The notes under the pieces were generated by a model. The model made no database searches and had not been told where the DNA came from. It saw nothing but the letters and a program-made list of their open reading frames with translations. DNA of 63,570 nt, counting the filler, from a bacterium (lineage in GTDB: Bacteria; JAJRZV01): assembly GCA_024275095.1 (NCBI GenBank). It is 8 parts of 8 records of this genome, joined end to end, with 100 filler letters (N's around TTAATTAATTAA, not from the genome) between each part and the next. Parts side by side here need not be neighbours in the genome. Positions count along the whole stretch, not along the records: positions 21,591 to 28,079 come from JAJRZV010000124.1; positions 28,180 to 31,484 come from JAJRZV010000125.1; positions 31,585 to 51,095 come from JAJRZV010000014.1; positions 51,196 to 55,867 come from JAJRZV010000015.1; 4 more parts are not named here. The stretch is one strand, 5' to 3'. Below are positions 27,715 through 51,480 of the stretch, one piece after another; the first letter of the stretch is position 1; each line of letters opens with the position of its first letter. Both the position numbers and the translations under genes were made by a program.

Positions 27715-27788
27715 GTGCCCGTAGCTCAGCAGGACAGAGCGCAGGACTCCGGATCCTGAGGTCGCGGGTTCAAATCCCGCCGGGCACG
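27715..27788 (+). tRNA. tRNA-Arg(CCG), CCA not encoded
   Basis: Acceptor GTGCCCG/CGGGCAC; anticodon arm CAGGA-CTCCGGA-TCCTG; T loop GGTTCAAATCC. Confidence 0.96.
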
Positions 27789-28011
27789 GTAAGTGCGTAT
27801 TTGGGTATGTGTGGGGGGTGGTATATACGTGCGAGAACCCGCGACAGCCGGAGGCTCGTATTGGGAGTTCCGCGTAGCGGAACGCCATATAAATTGAGCG
27901 AGCGGTGGTATCAAGGCACCTCTGTGGCATTTGATTTATTTGAAGCATCAATAAGTGAGCGAGCTTGCGCGTGAGCGAGCGTGTGCTGGTTCAAATCCCG
28001 CCGGGCACGGT
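27789..28011 (+). repeat. tRNA-linked module ending in a 24-bp direct duplicate of the tRNA-Arg(CCG) 3' end
   Basis: 27988-28011 = 27767-27790; 27835-27845 is the reverse complement of 27761-27771. Confidence 0.85.
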
Positions 28012-28079
28012 TTATTTTTTAAGGAGTTACGGCAATTAAGGGCTGAGGCTCATAAGAATGAGCTACCAATAAGCTACCA

Positions 28080-28179
28080 NNNNNNNNNNNNNNNNNNNNN
28101 NNNNNNNNNNNNNNNNNNNNNNNTTAATTAATTAANNNNNNNNNNNNNNNNNNNNNNNNNNNNNNNNNNNNNNNNNNNN
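28080..28179. other. Artificial contig linker
   Basis: N-run/TTAATTAATTAA/N-run. Confidence 0.99.
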
Positions 28180-28301
28180 TCATCGGTTTTTAAAAGGGCT
28201 GTTTTCGTAGAAGCACAACATGAAAAATGAAAACAGTCCACCTTCAAACTCAGAATAAAAAACAAAGCCGGGTTGAAAGTTTTAGTGAAACAGCAATCAA
28301 A

Positions 28302-28325
28302 TGTCAAATCTTGAGACCAGACCCC
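28302..28325 (-). repeat. 24-bp dispersed motif, copy 2
   Basis: Reverse complement is GGGGTCTGGTCTCAAGATTTGACA. Confidence 0.85.
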
Positions 28326-28336
28326 GAAAGGGCTTC

Positions 28337-28577
28337 TTTATGCCGGGGGTGGGATTGCCACGCGCACTACACGCTCAAGCAATGTCAACCCAACAAAAAA
28401 AACAAAACTTACTCCCACGCCTCTGCATCACCACCTCCTCTACACGCGCCCATTATATGTCGCTCCGCTCCCTCACGCCTCACGGCGTTCAAATCCCACC
28501 CCCGGCCAAATTTTTTATCCCTTCCAAATGGAAAACCTTGATGCAAAAAAATGCCCTGCTGGCTTCAGCTTAATTTA
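28337..28577 (-). repeat. tRNA-linked module downstream of tRNA-Leu with inverted and direct copies of the tRNA 3' end
   Basis: 28337-28356 = 28574-28593 (20-bp direct); 28487-28506 = reverse complement of 28579-28598 (20-bp inverted). Confidence 0.88.
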
Positions 28578-28663
28578 TGCCGGGGGTGGGATTTGAACCC
28601 ACACGGGGAGGGATCCCCTGCGGATTTTGAGTCCGCCGCGTCTGCCAATTCCGCCACCCCGGC
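28578..28663 (-). tRNA. tRNA-Leu(CAA), CCA not encoded
   Basis: Minus strand GCCGGGG/CCCCGGC acceptor; GCGGA-CTCAAAA-TCCGC anticodon arm; long variable arm; GGTTCAAATCCC. Confidence 0.96.
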
Positions 28664-28670
28664 TTAAGGC

Positions 28671-30230
28671 TTATCTGCTCCGCAAGGGCGGAGGTGCCGG
28701 AGGCCTCCGCAACCTTGGCGGTTTGGGCGGTTTCAACTTCGTAAGAATAATGTCAAGATAAATCACCGAATCTTTATCTGCAACGAACTCTTTGGTCACA
28801 GGCTGATAACCCATTGCTGAAATCTCTACCACGTGTTTGCCCGGCGGAATTTCACTGCGAAATCCACCGCTCACCGGATTGGTCACAATCGGTTTTATTC
28901 CCCCGGTCTGAAACTTGATGGTGGCAGCAAGTGGTTTCCCTGTTTCGCTGAAAACAGCTCCCATAAGTACTGCCGTGGGAGGCTTCAATGGTCTAAGGGG
29001 CACAACGCTCACCTTTGCTTTACCTTTGTATTTCTTGGATATAAAACGTGCGACCACCCTTTTGTACCCCGGAGCATAAATTTCAGCCTTGTACTGGTTC
29101 GCCGGCGGCAGTTCTGCAATCCTCGCCAGCCCCTTGCCATTGGTCACTATTGCGGGCAGACTCCTCTTTTCAAATCGAATAACTGCATCCTTGATGGGTT
29201 CCTTTGTTTTCTTGTCTATAACCTTTATCATGATCATGCCCTTGGGCTTTTCAGGAGGCTTGGCCTTGACCGTCACGTATTCAACCTTCGGAATTCGAGG
29301 AAGAAAAGTGTAGGAAATCCCTAAACCAACCTTCCAGGGAGGATACCTGTAGAAAAAGATAATCTTCTGAGAAAGGCACTGGTCATAAAATACATCCACA
29401 GCAAATCCTCTGAACGGAGTCATTCTCACCCCAAGAGAAAGGTACTGGGGAGAATCATCATAATTGTTATTGGTATCTCCATCGTTATCTGCATCAATGA
29501 TCTGATGTGTCCAGTACTCAACAAAAGGTGTTGCATACTTTGTGGGTACCTCCAAAGCCACACCGCCATCAACTGCATCATCGTGAAAGATACTGTACAC
29601 GTAATCAGCAAATCCTGTGTAATACCCTGCGTTCATGAGATGCTCGCGCCGGTTGTGGTAGTACCCTATATTGAGGTGAAACCGTAAAGGCACATCTTTC
29701 ATCTTGAGAAAATCAAGTGAAATGAGAAGACCGCCGCCTCCGCTGAATGCCCGGATGTCGTATGTCAGGTCGTCAAGCCCCGAAACAAAATCCCCCCTTC
29801 CGTAAAGGGCCATACCGAACCCGGTCCCTGTCATGTAACCCATCTTCAGGCCCACGTGAATATCTCCGCCGCTCGTAAAGTACGCTGGTGATCCCCCCAG
29901 AGCCTGGAATTTAGCAACACGCGCACTCGTCCCCAGTGTCAGCTCTCCAACATTACCCAGAGCCGTAACGAATGAAAAATACGTGTCAAAAAGGCGGAAT
30001 CTGTTGTTCTGCAGGTTGGGGTTATAGAAGTCTCGATAATTAATGTACTCAAAAGTAGTGCGCAGGGCCCAGTTGCCGGCACCGATATTATCCGCAGTGA
30101 GCACATGAACAACCCCTGAAAGCCCCTTATCAGAAGGGGAAAGGAACATGGCTCCCGGGGCTGCATAATGATACAAAAGCACCATCAAAAAAATAACGCC
30201 TGAAATGTGGGAATAAACATGCTGCTTCAT
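28671..30230 (-). CDS. Outer-membrane beta-barrel + two carboxypeptidase-regulatory-like (Ig) domains + Pro-rich tail
   Basis: Signal peptide; alternating beta-strands; VIDKKTKEPIKDA.I and ISAMGYQP Ig-like patterns. Confidence 0.6.
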   Translation of the reverse strand: MKQHVYSHISGVIFLMVLLYHYAAPGAMFLSPSDKGLSGVVHVLTADNIGAGNWALRTTFEYINYRDFYNPNLQNNRFRLFDTYFSFVTALGNVGELTLGTSARVAKFQALGGSPAYFTSGGDIHVGLKMGYMTGTGFGMALYGRGDFVSGLDDLTYDIRAFSGGGGLLISLDFLKMKDVPLRFHLNIGYYHNRREHLMNAGYYTGFADYVYSIFHDDAVDGGVALEVPTKYATPFVEYWTHQIIDADNDGDTNNNYDDSPQYLSLGVRMTPFRGFAVDVFYDQCLSQKIIFFYRYPPWKVGLGISYTFLPRIPKVEYVTVKAKPPEKPKGMIMIKVIDKKTKEPIKDAVIRFEKRSLPAIVTNGKGLARIAELPPANQYKAEIYAPGYKRVVARFISKKYKGKAKVSVVPLRPLKPPTAVLMGAVFSETGKPLAATIKFQTGGIKPIVTNPVSGGFRSEIPPGKHVVEISAMGYQPVTKEFVADKDSVIYLDIILTKLKPPKPPRLRRPPAPPPLRSR

Positions 30231-30321
30231 TCTCGCCTCCAATTGCCCTCCCTCAGAGGTGTTTCTGAGGCTTTATGCTATAATAACACAGCCAGTATAA
30301 GAAAAAAAATTAAGACTCTCC

Positions 30322-31484
30322 ATGAATATGAAACGTTTCATCTGGCCAGCAGGAGTCACGGCACTCAGTGCACTGACTCTTGTAATGGGGATTTACTCTT
30401 TTGTGCCTTCGGTCAAGCTGGTGGGCCGGCCATTTCCAGGGTTTTTCCTTTATCCCAATCATTTCATATCCATCTCTTTCAGGCCGGGCTGGGAATATGT
30501 AAATCCCGAAATACGACCCCTGCAAAAGGTTGTCCGCATTAACGGTGAACCCCCTTACGTCGTTAAACCGAACCATCTCAAAGGCGTTAAAACAATAACC
30601 GTGCTGTCGGAAGAGGGGCAAAAAGAAATTTGCGTAACACAGATACCCTTCTCATCCTCAGATTTTGTAATGATATTTTTGCTTCCCTTTATCCTGGGAC
30701 TCATCTTCCTCGTTACAGGGACAACTTTAGCCTTGCTCAAACCGCGTGATCGTCCTGTCCAGCTCTTTTACTTCGTAACCCTCGTCGTAGCCGTATTTTA
30801 TTTTGCATCCATGGATGCCAACCTGACGCATCGATTCTTCCGCGTCTGGCTTACATTCCCGTTTTTTGCAACCTTTTCATACCTCCTCTTTATGAAATTC
30901 CCCGGCCATCACACTCCAAAATTTTTCCGTGTAGCAGCCTACCCCATCGTCATTACGGCTGTGCTATTGTTCCTTGCCGCGCAGGTGTTCCTGTATCACT
31001 CCAAAGGATTTCCAAATATCCTTAAAGGGTACACCATCTACATGGGGATGGTTTTTATTGCAGACATTGCACTGCTGGCAACCAAATGGGTGAAGTCTCA
31101 CGACCCGCTGGTAAAGAAAAAGGCAAGGGTTATGATTTTTACCGTTCTCTTAGCATCCCTTATTCCGGGCATCTGGTCCTTCACATTTCCATTTGGAATT
31201 CCTTTTATCAACCTGGACCGGGTAATGATCCTGTCCATCGCGTTTCCAGCCATTACCGTGTACGCCATACTCAAGGTCAATGTGTTCGAAATGGATCGAA
31301 TGATCCAGAAAGGTTTCGGATATCTCGTGCTCAGTACAATTGTTGTAGCTCTGTATCTTTTTATGGTATTTCTCGGGACACTCCTGTCCCAGGGATTCTT
31401 AGGGCTGCAATTCACACCTGCTGGTACAATCATTTCGACCCTTTTAATTGCTCTGATATTCCATCCTCTGAGGGTACAGATTCA
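30322..31484 (+). CDS. Polytopic membrane sensor N-terminus (PDZ-like + multi-TM), 3'-truncated
   Basis: Multiple TM helices; YAILK..VFEMD..I.KG..Y and FHPLR pattern that typically precedes GAF/kinase/cyclase outputs. Confidence 0.65.
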
Positions 31485-31584
31485 NNNNNNNNNNNNNNNN
31501 NNNNNNNNNNNNNNNNNNNNNNNNNNNNTTAATTAATTAANNNNNNNNNNNNNNNNNNNNNNNNNNNNNNNNNNNNNNNNNNNN
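31485..31584. other. Artificial contig linker
   Basis: N-run/TTAATTAATTAA/N-run. Confidence 0.99.
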
Positions 31585-31664
31585 AAAGCTGATAACCCTT
31601 CCCTTTGAACCTTCGACGACTCTTTTGTTATATAAAGAACAAAACTTTCAGCGGGAGGCGTAAA

Positions 31665-32453
31665 ATGCCAGAATACAAATTCATCACCGTTGAGAAAAAG
31701 GGTGAAGGCGTAGCTCAGGTAACAATCAACAGACCGGACGTGCTTAATGCGTTGAACGTTGACGTTCTCAAAGAACTGGAGTGTGCTTTTTACGAACTCG
31801 AGCAGGGTGGGGATGTAAAGGTGGTCGTACTCACAGGGGCGGGCGAAAAAGCGTTTGTAGCGGGGGCAGACATTGCCTACATGAAAGACCTCGGTCCTAC
31901 CGGAGCAGAGAATTTTGCAGAACTGGGACAAAAACTCACGCGCTTCATGGAACGCTCGCCACTGATATTTATCGCGGCCGTAAACGGATACGCCCTGGGT
32001 GGTGGGATGGAGCTGGCCATGGCGTGTGACATCATCATCGCGGACGAAAAAGCACAGCTGGGACAGCCAGAAATTAATCTTGGAATCATCCCCGGTTTCG
32101 GTGGAACCCAACGGCTTGCCCGTCTTGCAGGAACCAAGGCGGCCCTGGAACTCGTGCTCTCAGGGCGACGAATAAAAGCAGAAGAAGCCCGTGAATTGGG
32201 CATAGTAAACCGGGTCACCGAAACAGGAAAATGTTTAGAAGAGGCCTTGAATCTTGCGCGCGAAATTGCGTCCAAACCAGCACCGGCACTCAAGCGGGCC
32301 AAAGCAAGTATTCTTGAAGGTACGGACAGCACGCTCGAAGCAGGTCTCGCCTCGGAACGACGCAACTTCGCACTCTTGTTCGATACTCACGACGCCAAAG
32401 AAGGACTCACTGCTTTTGTTGAAAAACGCAAGCCACAATTCAGGAACATGTAA
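31665..32453 (+). CDS. crt: Enoyl-CoA hydratase (crotonase)
   Basis: AFVAGADI, ALGGGMELA, GQPEINLGIIPGFGGTQRL; both catalytic Glu present. Confidence 0.92.
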   Translation: MPEYKFITVEKKGEGVAQVTINRPDVLNALNVDVLKELECAFYELEQGGDVKVVVLTGAGEKAFVAGADIAYMKDLGPTGAENFAELGQKLTRFMERSPLIFIAAVNGYALGGGMELAMACDIIIADEKAQLGQPEINLGIIPGFGGTQRLARLAGTKAALELVLSGRRIKAEEARELGIVNRVTETGKCLEEALNLAREIASKPAPALKRAKASILEGTDSTLEAGLASERRNFALLFDTHDAKEGLTAFVEKRKPQFRNM

Positions 32454-32463
32454 GGAGATAAAA

Positions 32464-32877
32464 ATGAAAGCCTGCACGGAATACCTTACATTCAATACAC
32501 GCAAAAGAGTCGAAATTGTCAACATTACCTCCCGGGTAGAAGAAATTGTGAAAAAAAGCGGTATTCAGGAAGGATTCGTACTGGTCTCTGCAATGCACAT
32601 TACAGCAAGCGTATTTATCAACGATGACGAAGAAGGTTTCAGAGAAGATCTACTGCGAATGCTTTCAAGTATTGCTCCTCAGGATGGTTCCTACAGGCAC
32701 AATCTTACGGGAGAGGATAACGGTTATGCCCACATGTGGAACATCCTTGTTCACCATGAGGTAATCGTACCTGTGACCGGGGGGCAACTGGACCTGGGCC
32801 CATGGCAGAGAATTTTTTACGGCGAATGGGATGGAAGACGGCCCAAACGCCTGGTTATAAAAGTTATGGGGGTGTAA
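32464..32877 (+). CDS. yjbQ: YjbQ/UPF0047 family protein
   Basis: HITASVFINDDE, YRHN.TGEDNG.AH, LGPWQRIFYGEWDG. Confidence 0.92.
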   Translation: MKACTEYLTFNTRKRVEIVNITSRVEEIVKKSGIQEGFVLVSAMHITASVFINDDEEGFREDLLRMLSSIAPQDGSYRHNLTGEDNGYAHMWNILVHHEVIVPVTGGQLDLGPWQRIFYGEWDGRRPKRLVIKVMGV

Positions 32878-32882
32878 CAGCC

Positions 32883-33344
32883 ATGAGTCAGGACATATTC
32901 AGAAAGTTATATTTCGAAGAAGTCAATGAAGGTGACTCCTGGGAAACCCCGGGACGCACCGTCACCGAAGCGATGATCGACCTGTTCGCCGGGCTCTCGG
33001 GAGATTTTAACCCCTTGCACACGGATGAAGCCTTTGCAAAACAGACACCTTTTGGTAAACGCATTGCCCACGGTATCCTCGGAATTGCCGTTGCAACAGG
33101 GCTTGTGCAAAATTATCCGCCCATGAGAACCCTTGCATTTTTAGGGATAAAAGAATGGAATTTCAGGGCCCCTATCTTCCCGGGTGATACAGTGCGCGTA
33201 AGAAGTACGGTATTGAACAAACGTCTTTCCTCCAAGAGTGACAAAGGCATCATTACCTGGAAAAGAGAACTCATTAACGAGAGAGGTGAAGTGGTCCAGG
33301 AGGGAATCACCGTTACAATGGTTGAAGTTAAGGAAAAAAAGTAA
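32883..33344 (+). CDS. MaoC-family (R)-specific dehydratase
   Basis: FAGLSGDFNPLH.D..FA..TPFGKRIAHG. Confidence 0.92.
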   Translation: MSQDIFRKLYFEEVNEGDSWETPGRTVTEAMIDLFAGLSGDFNPLHTDEAFAKQTPFGKRIAHGILGIAVATGLVQNYPPMRTLAFLGIKEWNFRAPIFPGDTVRVRSTVLNKRLSSKSDKGIITWKRELINERGEVVQEGITVTMVEVKEKK

Positions 33345-33345
33345 A

Positions 33346-33990
33346 TCACCGACTTAAAGCCAGTGAAACATTTTTCTCACCGGTAGGAGTTTCACCTCCC
33401 TCATGGGATCCAGTTTTGCCTAAGTGCGTTGCTTCACCACACGCCTGTGATGCTGTTGCAGGGCCAACGATAACGCTGCTTTTCCGGTACCTGACAATGA
33501 ACTGGAATTGTTCCCCTGCTATCGCGTAAAAACTGTAAAGCGGCGTTTCAAGCATATCTACAACTTCTTTCAGTTGACCCCGGGAATTAAGTACTACAAG
33601 CTCAATGTTCCCGCATGTGCTGGAAGGACTTACACTCCATAAAATTTCCATATTCCCCGACTTTTCCACATCCACATAAAACCGCCACGAAATTTCCTTC
33701 GAAGATGCCCGAATATCACGCCAGTAATAATCAGATGCTTTGTTCCAGGCCCGGTGAAAAAAATACGCTTTAAATGGCTCTCCCCCCCAGAAAAAAGCAA
33801 ATGTTTCATATCGCCTGTCAAACGCATCTGTTGCATCCGGCGCAACACCTAAAACCAAGCGCTGATATACCGGCCCCTGCTTTACACGAACCTCCACCTG
33901 CCAATTGTTGCCTGCTGCAAAGGACAAAACAGGAAGCAGGAGTGGCGCCAACACTCCTATGATCAGTTCACGTTTCTGTATTATCTTCAT
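33346..33990 (-). CDS. Secreted hypothetical protein
   Basis: Signal peptide ending SFA-A; LGVAPDATDAFD and ..DIR block; RBS GAGGAGG. Confidence 0.65.
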   Translation of the reverse strand: MKIIQKRELIIGVLAPLLLPVLSFAAGNNWQVEVRVKQGPVYQRLVLGVAPDATDAFDRRYETFAFFWGGEPFKAYFFHRAWNKASDYYWRDIRASSKEISWRFYVDVEKSGNMEILWSVSPSSTCGNIELVVLNSRGQLKEVVDMLETPLYSFYAIAGEQFQFIVRYRKSSVIVGPATASQACGEATHLGKTGSHEGGETPTGEKNVSLALSR

Positions 33991-34118
33991 TGTGCCCTCC
34001 TCAAGGTACTTTTTCTGGTACTCAAGACCCTTTCAAAAGGCATACCATGTGCGTCATGGCACAAACATCAGCTTTTTTAACGGGTTAAGGCAGTATTTTT
34101 ATGAAAGTATGTGGGTGG

Positions 34119-36968
34119 TCAATAACCCTGGTGTGGTAGCAATACCCCTCTTTCTGAAAAACGCGTCCATAAAGTGAGCGGGGATGAAAAACCAATGCTC
34201 AGGTAAAACTTCACACCTTCAACATCTTTGAGAGGCTTCGCCACATGAAAAGAGAAAGTGAAAGGGAAATGATACGCCAGATAAAGGTCTACATTTATAC
34301 CCCCACCCACCGAATGTATGAATTGAGGCTGAGGAAGAAAAGAAACGGCAGATTCGTAAAATGCGTCCAGGTAAAAAACACGGAAAAACAGAGGGAAGGT
34401 AGAAGCAATACCAGTGTCAGGAAAGTAAAAGGGATACAGTATAGAAAAAGCAGCAGAGGCCATGCGTGACCCGTTAATCCCTTCCGAATAGCTGTAGCCC
34501 CGCACAGTAAAGGTATCAGGGAAAAGCTCATCGGAACCTCCTGTATCAGACGTCTCAAAAGCCCTATCCCTATCCGGTCCCCACGCCGCCCCGGCAAGCA
34601 GACGACCCTGGAGAAAAACATTGATTCCAGGAAGCTTAATCGCAGGTGCAAGCTCCCATGCTGTTGCAGAATAGGAAACATCGCTTCCCGTGTACCTGCC
34701 GAGAGTTTTGAAAAACAGTGATACCTTCATTCCTGACTGGGGGGCAATGGAGGTACGGAAAAATTTTCGACTGTCAAAAGTAAAGTTCACTCCAACAGAA
34801 TTTCTCCATCCTCTTTGAATCATACCAGCGAGCTCCTCAGGAAAAGGAGAAAGGCTGCGGTGTTTCTTGAACAGATAGTAAAAACGCCCCCCGGCAAACC
34901 ACCTCTCGCGCAAATAGGGCACGCCGACAAGTACCCCTCCTTCCAGCCAGGACTGCCAGTATCTTCGAGCTTCACCATCAACTGTATAATCTACGCGCTC
35001 CGGTGGAACATGAGATAAAAACAACGCCACGGTCGGATAGAACCGATTGATACCAAAAAGCAACGAGAAAGGAAAAGTATTCCCATCACGAGAATGCTGG
35101 TAGCCCACACTTATGTAGTAGAAATACCTGAGAAGTACATCCCAGTTGAATGTGCGTGCAGACACATAAGTTCCTGTTTTGGAACTATACGCGTAGTATG
35201 GATACCAGAAAAGCGGACGCAGCGACTTGAAAGAACTGTATGCCTTGCCGGATATTCCGGGAGTAGAAAGGAAGGGGATAATCACCTCACCCTTGGGAAA
35301 TTCAATTTCCTTTTCTTCTTTCAGGTCCTGCCTGCAAATTTCGTAACCACGGGAGGTATAACAGGTATAAAAAACTTCGTTTTCAGCTGGGTCTATATCG
35401 AATTCATATATACCTGAATCGTCTCCACCCACAAGGTAATATTTTCCTTCTTCGGGTACGTACAGATAAAGGTAAAAACTTCCATTTCTTGAAGAAGTAA
35501 AGTAAATCCCTTTTTGCGTCCATACCGGAAAACGGTTCATCCATCTGTCTCTTGTTACAAAAGATACAAGTTGTGTTCTTACGTCCAGCACACATATATC
35601 CTGTGGTTCATTTGGGATTTTGCATGTATAAGCAACAAGCTGGCCGTCCGGGGCAACCGACGGGTCAGTGAGTTCAACTCCTTCCACAGTGAAACTTGAC
35701 TCCTTCTTTAACGAATCCCCATTTTTTGAAAAAAGGAAAATCTCCGTCCCGCGTGACGTTCTGCGAGTACCGACCATTATGTGGGAGGGGGGCAACCACA
35801 CTGCTGTCTCTACCCCACTGCCCTTGGTCAGTCGTGTAACCCTGCTGGAGTCAAGGTTTAACTCGTAGATGTCATATCTGGTATAAAACGTTTTCTTTCT
35901 CTCAATGGCAGTAAAAATAACAGAATTACTCCTATCACCAGCAGAAAGGCTCTGAACTTCGTAAGCATCCCACTTGGAGAGCAACTTTCCCGTGTTGGCA
36001 TCTATAAGATACAGCCCGGGATACTCCGAACCATTGTTGCCGTAAAAAAGAACCGCTCCATAAGATGCAAGTACTTTTACTTTCCCTTTGTAAAAGCCAC
36101 TGCGCGTAATAACCGTACGCCACAAATGCGTTTCCGGGGGAGCGTTTTCTAATTCGTGGAACTGAAAGTCACGCCAGAGGTCGTCCAGGGTGTATCCCCA
36201 GATGTTGTAACCGATTATGTTCGCAAAAAAAGGTACGGTTCTGCTGTAGCGTTCAAAAAATTCGGAGACGGTCTTTTCTCCGTATTTACTGCTCAAATAG
36301 TCAATAAACCGTGACCCGCTGAGATACTGGAAAAGACCGTCAGGCCATAAAGAAAGCTGGCCTGCACTTTTTGCGAGTGAAAATCTTTCGCGTGCAAGCG
36401 TTCTTGTAAAGATAAGACTGAAGGGATGTTTAACGCGGCCGAAGCCGGTAAACTCGCTTTCATAATAAGTGGCGATACCCTCTATAAGCAAATCCGGCAT
36501 AAGGAAATTTGGAAAGTACAAACGGCCCAGAATGTACCTGGGCACCAAGGAAATACCGCGTACCTGGTCAAGGGTGAGAATATGAACGAGCTCGTGCACA
36601 AATACAGTTTCAAGCCAGGTGGAATAATAACCGATTGAATCGGAAGGAAATGGTGGACGGGTGTCTATGTAGATCACAGGTCGCGGGAAGACCGTCGCAA
36701 TCCCGTTTGTGTCATCGTAATTTTCCAGGAGCACCACATGAATTTTCAGGGACGGTTCCCAGTTCAAACGCGACGATAACCTGGAAAGGATTTTCTCCGC
36801 ATTTCCAACAAGCCAGGTGGCATCAGATTGGGTCTTATCATAGTAATGAATGTAAAAATGTTGAGTTTCAACAGTACGCCATTTCAATCCAGGAGGCAAA
36901 AAAGTCGCACTTAAAGAAAACAAACACACCAGTGCCGCGACAGCGGCGGTGGAAAAACCGTTCCTCAA
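34119..36968 (-). CDS. Gluzincin (peptidase MA-like) + TolB-like beta-propeller + BamA/TamA-like C-terminal barrel protein
   Basis: W.TVETQHF.IHY; HELVH..EGIA; PSVAPDG; VRGYS; terminal FYLSIGF strand. Confidence 0.8.
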   Translation of the reverse strand: MRNGFSTAAVAALVCLFSLSATFLPPGLKWRTVETQHFYIHYYDKTQSDATWLVGNAEKILSRLSSRLNWEPSLKIHVVLLENYDDTNGIATVFPRPVIYIDTRPPFPSDSIGYYSTWLETVFVHELVHILTLDQVRGISLVPRYILGRLYFPNFLMPDLLIEGIATYYESEFTGFGRVKHPFSLIFTRTLARERFSLAKSAGQLSLWPDGLFQYLSGSRFIDYLSSKYGEKTVSEFFERYSRTVPFFANIIGYNIWGYTLDDLWRDFQFHELENAPPETHLWRTVITRSGFYKGKVKVLASYGAVLFYGNNGSEYPGLYLIDANTGKLLSKWDAYEVQSLSAGDRSNSVIFTAIERKKTFYTRYDIYELNLDSSRVTRLTKGSGVETAVWLPPSHIMVGTRRTSRGTEIFLFSKNGDSLKKESSFTVEGVELTDPSVAPDGQLVAYTCKIPNEPQDICVLDVRTQLVSFVTRDRWMNRFPVWTQKGIYFTSSRNGSFYLYLYVPEEGKYYLVGGDDSGIYEFDIDPAENEVFYTCYTSRGYEICRQDLKEEKEIEFPKGEVIIPFLSTPGISGKAYSSFKSLRPLFWYPYYAYSSKTGTYVSARTFNWDVLLRYFYYISVGYQHSRDGNTFPFSLLFGINRFYPTVALFLSHVPPERVDYTVDGEARRYWQSWLEGGVLVGVPYLRERWFAGGRFYYLFKKHRSLSPFPEELAGMIQRGWRNSVGVNFTFDSRKFFRTSIAPQSGMKVSLFFKTLGRYTGSDVSYSATAWELAPAIKLPGINVFLQGRLLAGAAWGPDRDRAFETSDTGGSDELFPDTFTVRGYSYSEGINGSRMASAAFSILYPFYFPDTGIASTFPLFFRVFYLDAFYESAVSFLPQPQFIHSVGGGINVDLYLAYHFPFTFSFHVAKPLKDVEGVKFYLSIGFSSPLTLWTRFSERGVLLPHQGY

Positions 36969-42794: not shown

Positions 42795-43226
42795 GTGGGA
42801 GAAGGGATTGCACTGGCGCTTATAACTGCGGTACTGTGGGGTATTGTTCCCATCATGGAAAAGGTGGGGCTCGAGGTCAAAGCATCACCTTTTAATCTCG
42901 CAATTCTCAGAAGTATTACAGTGGGAATGTTCGCTCTGGTTCTTTCCTTCTTCAGTGGATTTTATTCAGAAATTCAAACAGTCCCTGTGAAAAAGGGGAT
43001 TCTCATTGCATCCAGCGGTATTATTGCAGGATTCATTGCAATGACAGTGTACTATTCAGCTCTTAAACGAATCGGTGCTTCCGTGGTTGTACCACTTGCG
43101 TCAACGTACCCTCTATTCGCTTTGATATTTTCTATTATCCTCCTGCACGAGAAAGTTACTTTCACGCGCGCTGCAGGAGCAGCGCTTGTAGTCACCGGAG
43201 TTATTCTCATCAGTAGTGGAAAATGA
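42795..43226 (+). CDS. EamA/DMT family transporter (single domain)
   Basis: Five TM helices; YYSALK..GASVVVPL...YPL; LHEKVT. Confidence 0.9.
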   Translation: MGEGIALALITAVLWGIVPIMEKVGLEVKASPFNLAILRSITVGMFALVLSFFSGFYSEIQTVPVKKGILIASSGIIAGFIAMTVYYSALKRIGASVVVPLASTYPLFALIFSIILLHEKVTFTRAAGAALVVTGVILISSGK

Positions 43227-43276
43227 CAAACTCTCTTGCCCTCTACTTATCAGTGGTGATACTCTTTTAGCGCGCC

Positions 43277-43948
43277 ATGAGGTTCCCTGTAAAATCATTG
43301 CTGGCCATTGTGTTAATCGCCTGTACTTCCGCATGCCTTACAATCGAAGAAGAAATATGGCTAAAACCTGATGGTAGCGGTCTGGCAAAAGTAAAATTCA
43401 TCATGCCGGTGAGTTTATTTGAGAACGAAAAGGTGAGGAGAGCCCTCTCGTATCAGATTCCCCTCACCCCGGAAAGACTCCGGCAAAAATTCAGTAAAAT
43501 GCCAGGAATTTCAGTAAAGAACGTGGATGAATACATAACCCCTCAAAAAATGCGGGTGATGGAGGCAGACCTTGCGTTTGATCACATCGGCCGTTTGAGT
43601 GACAAGGCCGTGATGTACCAGCTCACGGAATACCAGGATACCGTCACCCTTACCGTAACAATTACGCGGCAGCATAGGAAAGGTGCGGCAAGTCGACGCA
43701 AGAGGAAAATAAACATCGAAGAAATACTGGAGAAAAATTTTCAGAAATACCAGATTAAATTTCTCGTTCACTTTCCAACGCGTATCATCCAAATTGAAAA
43801 TTTCGAAAAAGCGGGGAAGCGGGATGCAAAATGGCATGTTTCTTTCAGCACGATCTTTAAAGACGGACCACCCATTAAAGGCAAAGTAACATATTACAAG
43901 GAGCCGAATTTATGGGAAAAATTAATAAATTACTTCCGCTTTCCATAA
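43277..43948 (+). CDS. Lipoprotein, LppM/DUF3153-like
   Basis: Lipobox TSAC followed by LTIEEEIWLKPDGSG. Confidence 0.6.
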   Translation: MRFPVKSLLAIVLIACTSACLTIEEEIWLKPDGSGLAKVKFIMPVSLFENEKVRRALSYQIPLTPERLRQKFSKMPGISVKNVDEYITPQKMRVMEADLAFDHIGRLSDKAVMYQLTEYQDTVTLTVTITRQHRKGAASRRKRKINIEEILEKNFQKYQIKFLVHFPTRIIQIENFEKAGKRDAKWHVSFSTIFKDGPPIKGKVTYYKEPNLWEKLINYFRFP

Positions 43949-45003
43949 TCCTTGGAATCTCCTTGGGAATCCACACTCAAAGTTGTGCATGGATGGACAA
44001 ACCTCAGAAGGGACGGGTAAAGATCCAGATGACTCTTTCCCATATCAATACAAACCGTTACTACGATGGAAACGGCGATCTTCACCACTCCCCTTACATA
44101 AATTTTGCAGAAACCCGAATCACTCTGGGTGTTGAATGCAACATTACCGCATTCTTTTCCCTGTTTGCCAAAGTGCCTTTTGTGCAGAGGACTGGTAGCA
44201 CGTACATACCGGTATACTTTGTCACGGACACAGGGGCAATCACCATGGACGAAATTAATCTCTCGGTGAGGGGGTCTGGACTTGGAGATGTAGAAGCAGG
44301 TGTCCACATTTACCTCGACAAATCAATCGCTGAATACCTGAAAGAAGGTCTCTTTATTCGTCCACATTTTTCTATCATCTACCCTACAGGCGACAGCACA
44401 GGAGAATACCCGCGTTCTCTCAATCCATTTCAGGATTCTGTAAAACTTCCCACAGGCACAGGACAGGCAGATTACAGGCTGGGAATACTCGTGGGCTTCA
44501 AGTGGAAAATATTAAGGCTTGTTTTCGATTACACTTACACCATCCGTACAGCCACGAAGGACCTTACAAACTGGATTGCATACCTCCTCCCGGATAGCAT
44601 CGACCCCGGCGACCGCATGGACTTCTTGCTCAAAGCTGACATATTCCTCCCGGAAGGCTTTATCGTGAATACAGGCATTCGACATTCATTGCTTCAGGGA
44701 TTTAATGTCAAAGGTACAGACCTTATCACCGGCCAATACCTGGACTACAACACAACTCATGCGGTGCTCACGTATGGATCCGCTGGCATCCGATACTCCC
44801 ATAATTCGAAAATTTCATTTGGAATTACGTTTCACTTTCCAATTACTGGCAAAAATTATCCCGAGGCTTCAGCCTACGCAACTTCCAAAGACCCTTACAG
44901 GGTTAACGAAGGGGTACGGGACTTTGACGGGTTGTACCTCACGATGAGAGATCCTGTGCTTCCGGGGTTCTACACGGTAGCAGATATTACGTATGAATAT
45001 TAA
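43912..45003 (+). CDS. Outer-membrane beta-barrel of the CopB/MetA-pathway 'transporter' type
   Basis: Signal peptide; KVPFV, SGLGDVEAG, .PTG, PTGTGQ.D, DPGD; terminal YEY. Confidence 0.6.
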   Translation: MGKINKLLPLSIILGISLGIHTQSCAWMDKPQKGRVKIQMTLSHINTNRYYDGNGDLHHSPYINFAETRITLGVECNITAFFSLFAKVPFVQRTGSTYIPVYFVTDTGAITMDEINLSVRGSGLGDVEAGVHIYLDKSIAEYLKEGLFIRPHFSIIYPTGDSTGEYPRSLNPFQDSVKLPTGTGQADYRLGILVGFKWKILRLVFDYTYTIRTATKDLTNWIAYLLPDSIDPGDRMDFLLKADIFLPEGFIVNTGIRHSLLQGFNVKGTDLITGQYLDYNTTHAVLTYGSAGIRYSHNSKISFGITFHFPITGKNYPEASAYATSKDPYRVNEGVRDFDGLYLTMRDPVLPGFYTVADITYEY

Positions 45004-47953
45004 CCGCCTCATAGGTGTTTCGATAGTCGCTCTTGTCTGCCCTTTTGTTGCAAGGGCGTTCAACGACACCGGCATACGATGGATGTACACCGAAACAACC
45101 CACTTCAACATCGTGTATCATTCCGAATCAGCACACACAGCCTCTGAAGTCGCTTCCAAATGCGAAACATTTTATGCAAACATCGCCAGTTTCTTCGGCA
45201 TAAAGCCGCCACCCTGGAAAATCACCATTGTGGTAAAAGGCAAAGACGACATTGCCAATGGGTTCGCACTCTATAATTACGACCTTATCCAGTTGTGGAC
45301 GGTCAATCTGCATTATCCCATTCGTGACAAACATCGCTGGATAGACAACGTTCTTTATCACGAACTCACACACATCTTTCAGGAAAAGCTTTCCAGTGCC
45401 ACAGATCCATCCTTTCCTGCCATTATCGTAAATGCCGGGCTGGCAATAACACGCACTCGTGCACTCAAAGATTTTTCTCTAATAGACCCGGTGTTTCAGG
45501 CTGGTGGAGTCATCATCTATCCCACAGCACAGGCTCCTTCATGGTTTGTTGAGGGTGTTGCCCAGTACGTAGCATCCCGTTTCGGAAATGAATCTTATGA
45601 CTCCATTCGAGAAATGATTATGCGAACACTTGTGCTGGAAGAGAAATTTCCTCTGCCCGGGGAACTTCTCAACTTCAGGGGCAAACGCGGAATTAAATCC
45701 GAAATTGTCTATAACGCGGGATTCAGTCTTTCACGCTACATCGCTGACAACTTTGGGAACGATGCTCTTGCTTCTATTGCTGTGAAAGCATCCGCATTTC
45801 CAGGTGCTTTCGAACAGGCTGTTAAGAAAACTTTGGGAATTTCATACCGCGAGCTTTACTCACGCTGGCGCTCCCATGTGGAAGAATATGTATACAGGGT
45901 CACAGCAAGTATTAAAAACCCGGATGTAGAAAAACCGTTCATCTCCAAAGACCGCGGGATTCAAATGCTACCGCGTATAACACACAGCGGCCTGTATTAC
46001 CTCAGTTACTCTCCTTCCCGCGGCAAATCGCGTATTATGCTACTCACTCGGGACGCAAAAACTCCTCGTGTGATCGTTTCAAATGTAGGTGGCGGCTTTG
46101 ACGTGGATGCATACGCCAACTTCATTGTGTACGTAAAAAGAAAACTGAACATGAAAAATCATATTGTAAAAAGTATTTATGTAATGGATTTAACAACAGG
46201 TAAAACACATCCCCTGGTGTAAAAAGAAGGATTGGGAGAACCTGCTGTTTCTCCTGACGGAAAATACGTTGCAGCCGTAGCATGGGGTGACTCTTCAACC
46301 TGGTTGGAACTATACACCATGGATGGTGAATTCATCCGTCAGATCACCACATCTTATGGAATAGAAATCCACAACCCGACATTTTCTCCGGACGGAAAAT
46401 TTATTGCTTTCGAAATATTCGATGGAGAGCAACTGGATATTGGATGGACCAGCATATCCGGCGGGCCCATCTCAGTGTTAAAACTGACCCACAGTAACGA
46501 GCGCTTCCCTTCATTCATCAGTAACGACGCAATCTTCTTCTCATCAAACCAGAACAACATTTACAACATTTTCGCCGTTCAGATAACCACACAAACTGTC
46601 TCTCAGCTAACCAACACGCTGAAAGGCAACATGACGGTCGACTATGATCCTGTTACGCATACTTTATATTACGGGTGTTTTACCTCCTCAGGCTTCAAAC
46701 TGTGTCGGAGGAAATACCCAGTACTTACATTCCAGAACTCGGTGACAGATGTACGTATAACCGCTGCAAAGCTTTCCAAGTCCCAGATTCCCTTCTCACT
46801 CATCAGTAACGGTTTGCCCTACAAATTTATTCCATCAAGAGCAAACGTGTATCCGGTACTGAGTGCTATGGATTACCAGTTCGTGGCAGGAGCACAGTTC
46901 ACCTTTTCCGATCAGCTTTTTAAACATAATTTTTCATTTGCGGGTTTTTTAGGAACACGCGGATTTCAGTGGTTAAGCTTTCTTTACGTAAACCGCCAGC
47001 TTCCTGTCAACATTTTCGCAACAGCAGACCGCCTTAAATATCTTTTGGAAGAGAGTTTTTCGGTCAGTGGACTGACTTTTTCAAATATGCTCATAAGCGA
47101 TAGAGTGGGAGTCGGTGTTACAGCAAATGCAGGTGAACATGTGGCAGGTTCAATATCTTACTTTTATAATCATGCGAAGCTCATCTCACCACTTATGGAA
47201 TTTTCCCTGATAAAAGCTTATTCCGCCACACCTTCGGGTGAAATATACGAGCTTCACTCGATCCCCTTGAACTTGACTTTCCGCTGGCGTCATCCGGTGA
47301 ATCTCAAAATCTATTTTCGGGTATCCGGTCACTTCAACCGCAGCCTTTCTTACATGGACTATTATTACAACACAGGAGATTATTCATTTGTGAAAACGCG
47401 GCTTATAATTACAGGAACACACAAATTATACAAAGGGCTCAAACTCGGGTGGACACTGGCGGGTGGGCTAATCTCACGCAATGTAGATCCATTACACGAA
47501 TTTTTCCTCGGGGGTTTTTATTATCCTCTCTTCTTCGGCTTCTACGGAGATGTATACATGCCCGGTTATCCTTATCTCTCAATACATGGCGAATATCTGT
47601 ACTTCAACAGGATTCTTATGCCATACACCAAAGGAGTACGAACGCGGGCGATACTGGGCAATCATCTCACATTTCACGGACTGTCCGTATACGGCTTTGT
47701 AGACGTTGGTAATGCATTCTCTCGAAAAAAGTGGTTCACGGAAGATGAATACACGCGGTGGAACGAGATTTGCACCGATGCAGGAGTCGGCATGAGATTA
47801 AAACTGAACATTTTCTACAACGTCCCTTTTGACCTTTTCGTCATGGTTGCATATCCTTTCAATAACATACCGGTAAAGAACGAAAATGGAGAAGTATACA
47901 AGACCAGAGGAAAGGTAAAAACGTACTTTCTTCTGGGCTGGTCGTCGTTGTAA
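44993..47953 (+). pseudogene. Second gluzincin + TolB-propeller + barrel protein, interrupted by one in-frame TAA (46220-46222)
   Basis: ORFs 44993-46222 and 46232-47953 share a frame. HELTH..EGVA is in part 1; the propeller repeats (PAVSPDG, PTFSPDG) continue across the stop; combined ~985 codons, like the 949-aa paralog. Confidence 0.75.
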
Positions 47954-47979
47954 ACACCGGCGGGGAGGTCTGAAAAGGG

Positions 47980-49371
47980 ATGTTTGAGCAGAAAACCATT
48001 GAAAATACGGTGATAGAAAATGAAGTAATTGAGGGACTTTCGCTCGAAAATAAAGTGTTTGAACGCGTAACATTCCGGAGTACTGTTTTTCGAAACGTGA
48101 AAATCCATAACACCCGCTTCGTCAGGTGTAACTTCATCAATGTACAATTCCTTACAGTGGAAGGGACGTACATGGACATGGCAAATAGTTCCTTTCAATC
48201 TTCCAGTGTCGAAAATTCAACGTTTAAAAACTTCCGGGCAACAGGACTCCACGTCGAAAACTTCACCATCAAAGAAAGCACTTTCTATCATTTTTCCGTA
48301 TCCGGCTCATTCGTGCGATTAAAACTGACCAAATCACATGCAGAAAGCATCCAGATCGAGCCACTTAAAATCTCCGGGGCCGATGTTCTCTCCTGTAGTA
48401 TTGTTGGTGCCTTTATACGGGACATAGAAATGCAAAACTTCTCAATGCAGGATACCGACCTTTCGGATATAGACTTCGCAAATGTGAAAATAGAATCATC
48501 AGGATTTAAAAATGTCAGATTTTCAGGCATATCCGTAGAAAAAGCCATACTCAATGAAATTAATCTCAGCGAAAGTTCCTTATCTGGAATATCAATTTAC
48601 GATTTTGTTATGGCGGCAGCACTTATTAAAAACACCACTGTTAAAGAGTGCGAAGGTACCAGGTGGTCAATTAACAACTCAAATATGACGGGATTATCTG
48701 TATTTAACAGTAGCATATCGCTCCTGTCCCTTCGTAAAACCACAACGAGCAAGTGCCGAATGGAAAATCTCTCTTTTAATTCGGCACAGGTAGAAAACTG
48801 TATCTTCAGAGACTGTTCTCTCATTTCCGTAGAATGGACTTACTCGCATTTAAAAAACACGTCGTTCCCGGGTTCTGTATTCGAAAGAGTCAATTTATCA
48901 ACTTCAATCCTTGAAAACAGCGACATCTCCAAAATTTCATCACGTGAGTCCATATTTCCCCCCATCACCTCAGGGCAAAGTCAATGTCCAGCATGTGGAA
49001 GTTCCTTGAATACAGAAACAGGAACGTGCGAAAAATGCGGTAAACAATGGGCCCAAAAAAAACTTCGCATTTATTCAGGAACAGCGTCTATATTCTCTTT
49101 CACTCTCGCACTGCTTTCAGGTCCTTTTATGTTCGCGCTGGCGTTTGTTCTTAAACGTGCTGGAATGGAAACCATCTGGCCATTATTAATTATGTCTTCG
49201 GTGCCCCTTACAGTGCTTTCACTTTTTGGTTAACTTTATGCCATAGTGAGAAGCGTTTTATCTCGTGCTTCAGTGCGGGGGGTTTATGCGTATCTCGGCT
49301 TTGTCATCAGTGTTGCCAACCTCGCCTGCCTTTTTCTCTTGCTCCAGGCAGTGATGAGGCGATGGCTTTAA
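47980..49371 (+). CDS. Pentapeptide-repeat beta-helix + zinc ribbon + C-terminal TM helices; in-frame TAA at 49231-49233
   Basis: About 320 aa of 5-residue periodicity; CPACG..CEKCG; 45 more codons incl. a TM helix after the TAA, ending over the next gene's start. Confidence 0.7.
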
Positions 49372-50789
49372 CAGCGAAAATCATTGGTCCATCTGGCGAA
49401 CGTGAAGTAAAGATAACCTCGTTTCCGTGTACATTCGGGCGTTCAAGTACATGCGATGTAATTCTCCGTGACCCGGCGGTATCAAAAAAGCACTTCAGAA
49501 TCTACCGAGAAGGTGGTCGTTTCTTTGTCGAGGATCTCGGGAGTTCCAACGGTACTCTAATTCACGGCAAACGAATTACACAAGTACCTTTACAGGATGG
49601 CACTCGTATTCGTGCTGGCAAAACTGAAATCATTGTTTCATATCGCAAAACAACCACCACTCACCGTGACGGAGAAATCACAAGGTTGTTCTCCTCATTT
49701 TTTCAGGTTGCCAAGCTACTGCTGGTAAATATAGAAGAGAAGTATGTGTTTAAAGCGGTTCTCGAAGACATGCTAACGCTATTCAATATAGACCGCATTG
49801 CACTCTATCTGGACCAGGAAGGAATTTTCCAGAAGGTGGCGGAACAAAGCATAGATGCAACCCTTGTCCACGGCTGCGAACCGCCTGTCGAGCTTATCAA
49901 AGAAGAAGCTTCACGAGGCGAGGGAATACAATGGTTAGATTCGGAGCAACTGCCTTTTGATGTGGTTTCAGCATGCGTGGTTCCTGTAAGCGAATCGCTG
50001 GATGTACTTGGTGCCTTTTATATGGACACATTCTCTGCGCCCTTGCGACTGGATGAACGTGAAGGCTTTCTACTCACAGGGATTGCCGGATTGCTTGGTG
50101 TGCACTTGAAAGCTCGCCATCTTGAAAACAAGCTGGAAGAAGAACGTATGTTTCGCGACAGTCTTTCGCGCTTTGTTCCCCCCGATGCCCTGGAAACCAT
50201 CATCGGTGACAGGGAAAAGTTGATGCAATTAACAAATCGTCTGGAGCGCCAAAACGTCACATCCATGTTCGTGGATATCGTGTCCTTCTCAAGCATGTCT
50301 GAACGCCTCTCCAGCGAAGAGACAGCATTTGTAGTCAACGAGTTTATGAGCCGTGTCACATCGTGTGTGTTTAACCATGGAGGATCAGTAAACAAATACA
50401 TCGGTGATGCTGTGTTTGCATTGTTCGGTACCCCCATCCCGAGAGGAGACGAGGAAAAAAGAGCCATTGCGTGTGCTCAGGAAATTATCCATCAAATGGA
50501 CCTCATTCGTGTCCCAGGACTCCAGGAAACACTTCAGGTGCGCATCGGCATCAATACCGGCCCGTGTGTAGTTGGATTCATCGGGCCTGCCCAGCGACTC
50601 GAATATACAGCCATAGGCGATGCTGTCAACGTAGCAGCACGACTGCAAACTCTCGCCAAACCCAACCAGATTCTCGTGGGAGAGGCTACCTACCGCATGG
50701 CCGGTGAGGCCTTCAAATTCAAACTTGTGGGACAGCTCAAGCTCAAGGGAAAAACCGAACCTGTCGGAGTATACGCTGTAATCGGTTAA
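49362..50789 (+). CDS. FHA + GAF + class III adenylate cyclase
   Basis: FGR..VSKKH..DLGSSNGT (FHA); FVDIVSFS, NKYIGDA, YTAIGDAVNVAARL (ATP-specifying K/T). Confidence 0.92.
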   Translation: MALTAKIIGPSGEREVKITSFPCTFGRSSTCDVILRDPAVSKKHFRIYREGGRFFVEDLGSSNGTLIHGKRITQVPLQDGTRIRAGKTEIIVSYRKTTTTHRDGEITRLFSSFFQVAKLLLVNIEEKYVFKAVLEDMLTLFNIDRIALYLDQEGIFQKVAEQSIDATLVHGCEPPVELIKEEASRGEGIQWLDSEQLPFDVVSACVVPVSESLDVLGAFYMDTFSAPLRLDEREGFLLTGIAGLLGVHLKARHLENKLEEERMFRDSLSRFVPPDALETIIGDREKLMQLTNRLERQNVTSMFVDIVSFSSMSERLSSEETAFVVNEFMSRVTSCVFNHGGSVNKYIGDAVFALFGTPIPRGDEEKRAIACAQEIIHQMDLIRVPGLQETLQVRIGINTGPCVVGFIGPAQRLEYTAIGDAVNVAARLQTLAKPNQILVGEATYRMAGEAFKFKLVGQLKLKGKTEPVGVYAVIG

Positions 50790-50800
50790 TCAAATATCCA

Positions 50801-51095
50801 TAGTGTTTCTCCAATTGTGTCTCAAAATATTTAATCATCATACAACCTCCCGGGCAAGAGAATGAAAAGTATCAGAAAATACAAATTCAAAGCCCGGAAG
50901 TTTCCTCTTTGAGATTTTCTCACCCCATCCAGGAATATGAGGAAGAGGATTTTATCAGCATTTTCTTCATCAGGGAGGATTTCCATCACCTTAAGCCTGC
51001 GTTTTACTTCTTCGAACAGTCTTTGGGGCTCATTAGTGGTGTAGATGAATCTCCTTATCTCAAGGGGAAATTCAAAAAATCTCAAAAGATCATCA
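50801..51095 (-). mobile_element. IS256-family transposase 3' remnant with probable right end
   Basis: IRRFIYTTN...RL..EVKRR.KV...LP motif; apparent frameshift before KRKLPGF; minus-strand end GACACAATTGGAGAAACACTA. Confidence 0.75.
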
Positions 51096-51195
51096 NNNNN
51101 NNNNNNNNNNNNNNNNNNNNNNNNNNNNNNNNNNNNNNNTTAATTAATTAANNNNNNNNNNNNNNNNNNNNNNNNNNNNNNNNNNNNNNNNNNNN
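51096..51195. other. Artificial contig linker
   Basis: N-run/TTAATTAATTAA/N-run. Confidence 0.99.
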
Positions 51196-51269
51196 GCGCC
51201 CGTGGCTCAACAGGATAGAGCAGCGGACTTCTAATCCGCGGGTTGGGGGTTCGAGTCCCTCCGGGCGCG
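51196..51269 (+). tRNA. tRNA-Arg(TCT), CCA not encoded
   Basis: GCGCCCG/CGGGCGC acceptor; GCGGA-CTTCTAA-TCCGC anticodon arm; GGTTCGAGTCC. Confidence 0.96.
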
Positions 51270-51480
51270 CGGTGAAATGCGTTTCGGAGAGGTAAGGGCG
51301 GTTTTTTCAGGCACTTCCGGATATGAACCCCCAATGCGTATAGCAAGTGGTGAGCGGAGCGAACATTTCCAAAAAGAGCGAGCAAAAAGCATCAAAGAGA
51401 GAGGGTGTTTTTTTCAGTGCTTCAAGGTAATTCAGAGGAGAATTTTAACTCGCGTGAGGGTTCGAGTCCCTCCGGGCGCG
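51270..51480 (+). repeat. tRNA-linked module ending in a 23-bp direct duplicate of the tRNA-Arg(TCT) 3' end
   Basis: 51458-51480 = 51247-51269; 51325-51334 is the reverse complement of 51243-51252. Confidence 0.85.

Follow-up and report, generated by a model that had tools for sequence, protein, structure and literature searches.

tRNA genes are the chief landing sites of prophages and genomic islands. Among the elements found there, cis-mobilizable elements (CIMEs) are typically kilobases long and recognizable as decayed integrative and conjugative elements (ICEs). As a described class, derived from ICEs or from integrative and mobilizable elements (IMEs), CIMEs keep the attachment sites attL and attR and have lost the integration and transfer genes (in sections of PMC5704250). 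On integration into a tRNA gene, the element supplies a copy of the 3′ part and the host 3′ end is moved to the far junction; the T-loop is named as an integration point, and Arg and Leu are within the four tRNA targets that prophages use most (in sections of PMC1635311). Here we describe a 63,570-base stretch of DNA, hereafter the window, which consists of eight contigs of one draft genome joined by N/TTAATTAATTAA linkers, and in which every tRNA gene is followed by a non-coding module bounded by a second copy of the tRNA 3′ end. The best description of these modules is a miniature, gene-less, tRNA-associated insert. From the sequence, we tentatively read them as attL/attR pairs produced by site-specific recombination in the T-loop, and hence as gene-less integrative elements or relics of such elements, a reading to which we give somewhat less than an even chance. 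As an observation the finding is solid, and the mechanism proposed for it is tentative.

Exactly three tRNA genes were found in the window by ARAGORN and Rfam, on three contigs. The features of the three modules are as follows.

27669-27698: sigma-70-like promoter ahead of tRNA-Arg(CCG), from a promoter scan
27715-27788, plus strand: tRNA-Arg(CCG), intact, putative attL side (ARAGORN; RF00005, 70.9 bits)
27789-27987, plus strand: insert after tRNA-Arg(CCG), about 199 bp, non-coding, between the two 3′-end copies; no Rfam match
27835-27845, plus strand: inverted copy, 11 nt, of tRNA-Arg(CCG) positions 48-58, starting 45 nt after the tRNA
27876-27892, plus strand: core AGCGGAACG then CCATATAA, in the Arg-CCG insert
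27985-28011, plus strand: second T-arm and 3′ acceptor strand of tRNA-Arg(CCG), putative attR; 26/27 positions, exact at 27988-28010
28578-28663, minus strand: tRNA-Leu(CAA), intact, putative attL side (ARAGORN; RF00005, 60.9 bits)
28357-28577, minus strand: insert after tRNA-Leu(CAA), 221 bp, non-coding, between the two 3′-end copies; no Rfam match
28487-28506, minus strand: inverted copy, 20 nt, of tRNA-Leu positions 66-85, starting 71 nt after the tRNA
28453-28469, minus strand: core AGCGGAGCG then ACATATAA, in the Leu insert
28337-28356, minus strand: repeated 3′ end of tRNA-Leu, 16 nt followed by TAAA
51196-51269, plus strand: tRNA-Arg(TCT), intact (ARAGORN; RF00005, 68 bits)
51270-51457, plus strand: insert after tRNA-Arg(TCT), about 188 bp, non-coding, between the two 3′-end copies; no Rfam match
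51325-51334, plus strand: inverted copy, 10 nt, of tRNA-Arg(TCT) positions 48-57, starting 54 nt after the tRNA
51353-51366, plus strand: core AGCGGAGCG then AACAT, in the Arg-TCT insert
51456-51480, plus strand: second T-arm and 3′ acceptor strand of tRNA-Arg(TCT), putative attR; 24 of the first 25 positions, exact at 51458-51480

The RF00005 matches span the full model, placing an intact tRNA at one junction of all three loci. None of the three genes encodes CCA, and their T-arms have GNGGGTTCRARTCCCNC in common. An earlier note on this DNA held that the 3′ end of each tRNA is copied exactly downstream, and this is borne out: the repeat comprises 23 nt for tRNA-Arg(CCG) (27988-28010, plus strand, offset 221), 16 nt for tRNA-Leu (28341-28356, minus strand, offset 237), or 20 nt (28337-28356) when the next four bases, TAAA, are counted, and 23 nt for tRNA-Arg(TCT) (51458-51480, plus strand, offset 211). 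Over the three loci the second copies are unmutated at 62/62 bases, and the period, meaning the insert plus one repeat, falls in the narrow range of 211, 221 and 237 bp. In both Arg modules the similarity begins at base 1 of the T stem and the sole mismatch lies in the 5′ strand of that stem; in the Arg-TCT second copy GAGGG replaces GGGGG, yielding a perfect T stem. Compared with the gene, the Leu second copy lacks part of the T-loop. The inserts contain no open reading frame (ORF) of note, being at 188-221 bp too short to encode anything, and a sequence scan found no promoter-like or terminator-like site within any of them. Each module sits no more than about 160 nt from the end of its contig. 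Past the Arg-CCG second copy 69 nt remain, and a contig edge is 157 nt from the Leu second copy, the far side being unseen in both; base 1 of tRNA-Arg(TCT) is the first base of its contig (51196). The latter contig start may indicate that this tRNA sequence is preceded by different sequences within the sample.

As a control we used 100 distinct tRNAs from three other genomes, masking other tRNA genes and searching 400 nt downstream for direct copies. A direct copy of at least 12 nt within 400 nt was present in 1/100, this being a tandem pseudo-tRNA; an inverted copy of at least 10 nt was present in 2/100, and both features in 0/100. A further six tRNAs gave no direct copy (0/6) and one inverted copy (1/6, 11 nt). 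Measured against these controls, the presence of both copies at 3/3 window tRNAs, in the same order and with the same spacing, is far beyond chance, and the claim that tRNAs on three different contigs share one downstream layout stands. With 3/3 tRNAs occupied, a rough one-sided estimate makes it unlikely that the occupied fraction genome-wide is below about a third. The tandem case is found in control genome G001 (L128 1653-1870), where a tRNA-Glu is followed about 60 nt later by a partial second tRNA-Glu-like copy with extra bases in the T-loop region and a 23-nt identical 3′ end 112 nt downstream.

In addition to the direct copy, each module carries an inverted segment that matches its own tRNA. 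The earlier description of an antisense copy of the T-arm and 3′ region was right about the presence, lengths and positions of these segments, but the Leu and Arg copies mirror non-homologous parts of the tRNA. The Arg copies mirror the variable loop, the 5′ T-stem and the start of the T-loop, whereas the Leu copy mirrors the T-loop through to the acceptor end, and the three have only GTTC in common. In the Arg modules the inverted segment corresponds to host sequence on the left flank of the repeat and the direct copy to the right side, with GGTTC common to both, and the inverted copy pairs better with the tRNA gene itself. In the Leu module the inverted segment falls within the repeat and not beside it. 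Every boundary of the direct and inverted copies sits in or beside the T-loop.

The inserts also share a short motif. AGCGGARCG occurs at three sites in 63.6 kb, solely within the three inserts, always on the tRNA strand and 83-109 nt after the tRNA. At least three window sites were obtained in 4/100 window shuffles, and a 9-column block with 8 columns identical across the three inserts arose in 9/300 insert shuffles. Support for AGCGGARCG as a shared core is thus modest, helped by the matching positions: the proposed core is present in every insert, but it is short and shuffled inserts sometimes equal it. Pairwise local alignment of the inserts is weak (z 1.1-2.4), and GCATCAA is the sole 7-mer common to all three (P ~0.07). 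A second proposed shared feature, CGCGTG ahead of the direct copy, did not hold up as a signal; this hexamer is frequent in the window (42 sites vs ~20 expected) and is therefore uninformative. At Arg-TCT it belongs to a 22-nt stretch (51452-51473) identical to the T-arm regions of annotated phage tRNA genes, and there it reads as tRNA-like sequence and not as a separate signal.

Other internal repeats differ from insert to insert. GAGCGAGC is enriched: of its 6 window sites, 4 fall within the two Arg inserts, and a count of 6 is reached in 0/100 shuffles. Internal direct repeats are significant in one of the three inserts, that of Arg-CCG, which holds GAGCGAGC three times and GGTGGTAT twice (P ~0.006). 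The Arg-TCT insert contains an imperfect direct repeat of about 24 nt (AGGG.G.TTTTTTCAG.GC...) with one copy near each end (51294-51320 and 51401-51428), in which exact 8-mers are reached by T-run words only; these repeats are possible arm-type sites.

We read the modules as attL/attR pairs because each insert is flanked by direct repeats of the tRNA 3′ end and has an intact tRNA at one end, the signature known for elements that integrate into tRNA genes. We place the crossover in the T-loop because the copies are identical from the loop onward to the 3′ end, the 5′ stem strand just ahead of the second copy is a near-match, as would suit a core-binding site belonging to the element, and the breakpoints lie in or beside the loop. 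In such an event, foreign non-coding DNA of 188-221 bp would have entered the tRNA gene by site-specific recombination. The intact tRNA would be the attL side, with its 5′ part from the host joined to a 3′ part from the element, and the downstream copy would be the attR side, in which the imperfect core site of the element, the T-stem 5′ strand with one mismatch, would be joined to the displaced host 3′ end. A near-match upstream of perfect identity fits what C-O-B′ vs B-O-C′ core sites predict, and the T-arm, with its 5-bp inverted stems and 7-nt loop, appears shaped like a tyrosine-recombinase core site. The module targets, Arg, Leu and Arg, are favored prophage targets, and the lack of folding support for an RNA-level role (below) counts for the att reading as well.

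The size of the modules suggests what they could be. The lambda attP is about 240 bp, and that of phage mv4 was given as 234 bp and later as 215 bp; its 17-bp core matches a tRNA-Ser 3′ end exactly (in sections of bioRxiv 10.1101/2023.11.06.565760). Because a complete attP of a lambda-type tyrosine integrase is as long as the period (211-237 bp), the modules may be integrase-less, “attP-only” mini-elements; they may otherwise be extremely reduced relics of larger elements, or mini-CIMEs, that represent the last stage of CIME-type decay. If still mobile, they would rely on a recombinase encoded elsewhere and acting in trans. We infer the recombinational origin, the position of the crossover and the need for an integrase in trans from the features above. 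Two proposals of the earlier note change under this reading. Of a family of non-autonomous, tRNA-targeting mini-elements, the miniature gene-less insert survives as the best-fitting description, but the inserts are not recent copies of one mobile family, because they are nearly unalignable. That the variable parts are templated from the host tRNA is a weaker proposition than was stated, as the classical integrase model already accounts for the direct copy.

Several points weigh against recombination at att sites. We ran Pfam on 43 of the 50 window ORFs of at least 120 aa (the seven omitted being cell-division genes, radical-SAM genes and spurious frames), and no integrase or other recombinase was found among the 43. 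Three independent decays to the same ~200 bp are unlikely, and no precedent for a 0.2-kb attP-only element was found in the open-access literature. The attP-like anatomy seems weak: internal direct repeats are significant in 1/3 inserts, and of 45 IHF-consensus matches in the window (at most 1 mismatch), none lies within the inserts. A common integrase family would have a single 9-mer to its credit (equaled in 9/300 shuffles) among inserts that almost cannot be aligned. The inverted segments of the Arg modules mirror host sequence outside the identity block, a feature foreign to a classical attP, and the att model leaves the host-matched inverted segment unexplained. Occupation of 3/3 tRNAs suggests that the feature extends across the genome, and integrases specific for a single tRNA each do not fit this well. 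Finally, blastn and exact-word scans found no related full-length element in phages, plasmids, viral or metagenome contigs or 401 sampled genomes.

The pattern scans required exact words, so diverged relatives could be missed. Metagenome contigs gave zero matches to the Arg-CCG 23-mer and to the Leu tRNA end plus inverted copy; viral contigs gave zero matches to the latter, to the Leu 21-mer and to a 24-nt repeat of the window, GGGGTCTGGTCTCAASATTKGACA. The core plus CATATAA matched 16 loci in viral contigs, none with a tRNA nearby, and these were rejected as chance matches. The Arg-TCT 23-mer was found at 32 viral loci, with one match apiece: 14 are whole tRNA-Arg genes and 18 lie outside a called tRNA, a few being cut by contig ends. 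Phage-borne copies of the tail therefore exist, a point in favor of the att reading, and the module motifs were absent from all 32 loci. A blastn comparison of the three inserts with phages and of the Arg-CCG insert with plasmids returned chance or tRNA T-arm matches only, and the pattern T-loop plus inverted GAACC plus core had no match in the 401 genomes searched from a single candidate phylum. Duplicated tails beside tRNA genes are already a familiar finding. In the open-access literature searched we found no described equivalent of the modules, a set of inserts without genes that have the size of an attP, share one layout and carry an inverted segment matched to the host.

Comparison with known systems gives partial matches in each case, and the modules belong fully to none of the families tested. 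Prophages and genomic islands with tyrosine integrases and lambda- or mv4-type attP sites resemble the modules in the 3′-end direct repeat, the regenerated tRNA, the T-loop boundary, the Arg and Leu targets and the size of the unit (211-237 bp vs about 215-240 bp for a full attP, from the sections cited above). Unlike them, the modules have no integrase or other genes, measure 0.2 kb against kilobases, lack clear arm-type or IHF sites, carry an extra inverted segment and occupy 3/3 tRNAs. CIMEs are like the modules in being gene-less DNA between att-type repeats at a tRNA 3′ end, with a distal copy that other elements could use for attachment, and differ in that the modules are ~200 bp and occur three times at the same size with a shared layout; the modules belong to the CIMEs in form only, with att repeats kept and integration and transfer genes not found. 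tRNA fragments left by mobile-element integration likewise place a partial tRNA 3′ piece near a canonical gene (in sections of PMC9897764). Such fragments normally lie at the far end of a large element, whereas here the second copy is 211-237 bp away and is accompanied by an inverted fragment and a motif.

The bridge RNA of the IS110 family has short element segments complementary to both target sides around a small core. The Arg modules similarly have segments that match two target sides around a core, but they carry no recombinase gene, their duplication is 20-27 bp vs 2 bp, the Leu geometry differs and there is no RNA structure support. CTX-type phages integrate via a folded single strand with two inverted target-like sites. 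In the modules 63-72 nt separate the sense and inverted copies of the target, and folding could bring the two together as a target-like duplex; unlike in those phages, the target is a tRNA T-arm and not dif, there are no phage genes, and the Arg inverted copy is a closer match to the host side than to the element core.

Of the alternatives to an att pair, the one that survives best, although we consider it unlikely, is that the module has a function within the tRNA transcription unit of this lineage, acting as a 3′ trailer RNA or as a DNA signal, with its tRNA-matched segments kept by selection. The segments might, for example, pair with the tRNA body or its precursor during 3′ maturation, or regulate read-through. 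Functional structured elements typically combine a kept architecture with an almost free sequence, as seen here together with two segments that vary along with the host tRNA, and the modules are present at 3/3 tRNAs with 62/62 second-copy bases unmutated. As CCA is not encoded, 3′ processing would be endonucleolytic and followed by CCA addition, and inserts without a promoter-like site would be co-transcribed with the tRNA. The folding energies do not bear this out. For insert plus second copy, z against shuffles was -1.27, -2.15 and -0.05, so that two of the three inserts fold no better than shuffles; we rejected a stable RNA fold, and the structured trailer RNA that the earlier note had offered as an alternative draws no support from folding. 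By comparison, tRNA plus insert gave a better value, z -2.04, which includes the tRNA itself. The inverted segment pairs with different tRNA parts in Leu and in Arg, so there would be no common structure, and a trailer that paired with the T-arm would unfold the tRNA. Rfam 15 reported only the three tRNAs and a cobalamin riboswitch above gathering score in the window, and permissive Rfam scans of the inserts gave chance-level matches only; no Rfam or tRNA-linked-repeat match that would fully explain the modules emerged.

A more speculative possibility, to which we assign a low probability, is that in a deep, poorly sampled lineage most tRNA genes carry a ~200-bp non-coding module whose two tRNA-matched segments, the inverted and the direct one, would not be passive scars and would operate a programmable system directed at the T-loop, such as a gene-less mini-element that finds its target by base pairing and is moved in trans or an att-site “occupier” or decoy kept by the host.

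Casposases and Cas1-Cas2 produce long target-site duplications from staggered cuts. It is distinctly unlikely, in our judgment, that the modules are a new T-loop-directed mini-element that either makes cuts staggered by ~23-27 bp or uses the inverted segment as a nucleic-acid guide to read its target, with host-matched parts that arise from, or serve, insertion at any tRNA. Such an element would account for near-constant repeat lengths in one register, from T-arm to 3′ end, at three different tRNAs and for 3/3 occupation; one enzyme could read all three targets, given the T-arm sequence that they share, and the way the inverted and direct copies of the Arg modules meet on GGTTC resembles two guides at a core, as in the bridge-RNA comparison. 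The details of the repeats point elsewhere. Both Arg modules have their mismatch on the 5′ border of the repeat, which fits a recombinase core better than a clean duplication, the different register of the Leu repeat again fits a recombinase core site better, and the Leu inverted segment lies within the repeat and not beside it. No insert interior contains an inverted 8-nt word, thus no sign of terminal inverted repeats of at least 8 nt, and no transposase, Cas1 or DEDD recombinase was found among the Pfam-scanned ORFs. The divergence of the inserts is also too great for recent copies.

Other candidates for a mobile or switching element were tried and rejected. A transposon or miniature inverted-repeat transposable element with terminal inverted repeats was set aside on the lack of inverted 8-nt words in the insert interiors and on the 20-27 bp duplication. 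Three more were dropped by eye: a casposon, as there are no terminal inverted repeats; a retroviral-type primer-binding site, as the Leu inverted copy is without discriminator base or CCA; and an invertible promoter flanked by the two copies, as the Arg inverted copy pairs better with the gene.

We regard an assembly artifact as very unlikely. Here a graph cycle through a shared tRNA tail would have been threaded into the tRNA locus, or chimeric amplification products would have been assembled, and the true sequences would be an empty tRNA locus and a separate molecule or locus. The nearness of all three modules to contig ends speaks for such an error, and repeats of 20-24 nt would be close to small k-mer sizes. 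Against this, draft genomes commonly break at tRNAs for ordinary reasons, and an assembler needs reads that hold both insert-repeat junctions. Order, spacing and a motif common to three unrelated inserts are not expected from an artifact, and a k-mer effect does not account for the near-match to the 5′ strand of the T stem ahead of the second copy.

Decayed tandem duplicates of each tRNA gene, with only the 3′ quarter recognizable, are highly improbable: although such a pseudo-tRNA exists in control genome G001 and a permissive alignment at Arg-TCT can be extended across tRNA positions 7-74, the 5′ part of each tRNA has no significant similarity to the 70 nt ahead of its second copy, whether judged by shuffles (P = 0.79, 0.28, 0.16) or by cross pairs, a permissive Rfam scan found no partial tRNA there, neutral decay would not keep 62/62 bases beside unrecognizable sequence, and the inverted copies and shared core would be left unexplained.

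Should the modules be minimal gene-less integrative units, they would reveal the lower size limit of site-specific mobile elements and how att sites persist, block further integration or act as stepping stones. Inserts the size of an attachment site would escape notice, because island finders usually seek kilobase-size elements. If the inverted segment is functional, it would represent an unknown way of recognizing tRNA genes or of handling tRNA precursors.

The remainder of the window has ordinary bacterial gene content by Pfam and Rfam, including a cell-division cluster, chemotaxis and fatty-acid genes and the cobalamin riboswitch. Comparisons of FtsA, an FtsZ-like protein and a radical-SAM protein indicate a Myxococcota-like organism with no close relative found in the collections. 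For FtsA the top outside match has 60% identity, and named matches, at about 50%, are from Myxococcales or “Deltaproteobacteria” metagenome-assembled genomes; the top outside match of the radical-SAM protein, whose gene neighbors tRNA-Arg(CCG), is at 45%, and the FtsZ-like query against one genome per species gave 80 loci, none above 55% identity. Further features are these.

60133-60318, minus strand: cobalamin riboswitch (Rfam, 120 bits), 88 nt from the contig start, so that the regulated gene would be off the contig
62925-63218, minus strand: ribbon-helix-helix protein, directly upstream of a PIN-domain protein (62503-62925, minus strand)
63182-63445, minus strand: transposase-type helix-turn-helix (HTH) ORF fragment with HTH_23, HTH_28 and HTH_Tnp_1 matches

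The ribbon-helix-helix and PIN-domain genes (62503-63218, minus strand) resemble a VapBC-type toxin-antitoxin pair, and the ORF fragment at 63182-63445 looks like a truncated insertion-sequence gene. A Kelch-repeat gene (54638-55858) contains a 54-nt unit that recurs every 144-303 nt (54698-55663); this unit is protein repeats and no separate element. The three copies of the 24-nt repeat GGGGTCTGGTCTCAASATTKGACA lie on different contigs (151-174, plus strand; 28302-28325, minus strand; 63275-63298, plus strand), with zero occurrences in 100 shuffles, and similarity around the three sites is confined to ~27-45 nt. One copy lies 11 nt past the 20-nt second copy of the Leu module and one directly after the HTH-coding part of the ORF fragment; the repeat may be like repetitive extragenic palindromic (REP) sequences or may mark the edge of a mobile element.

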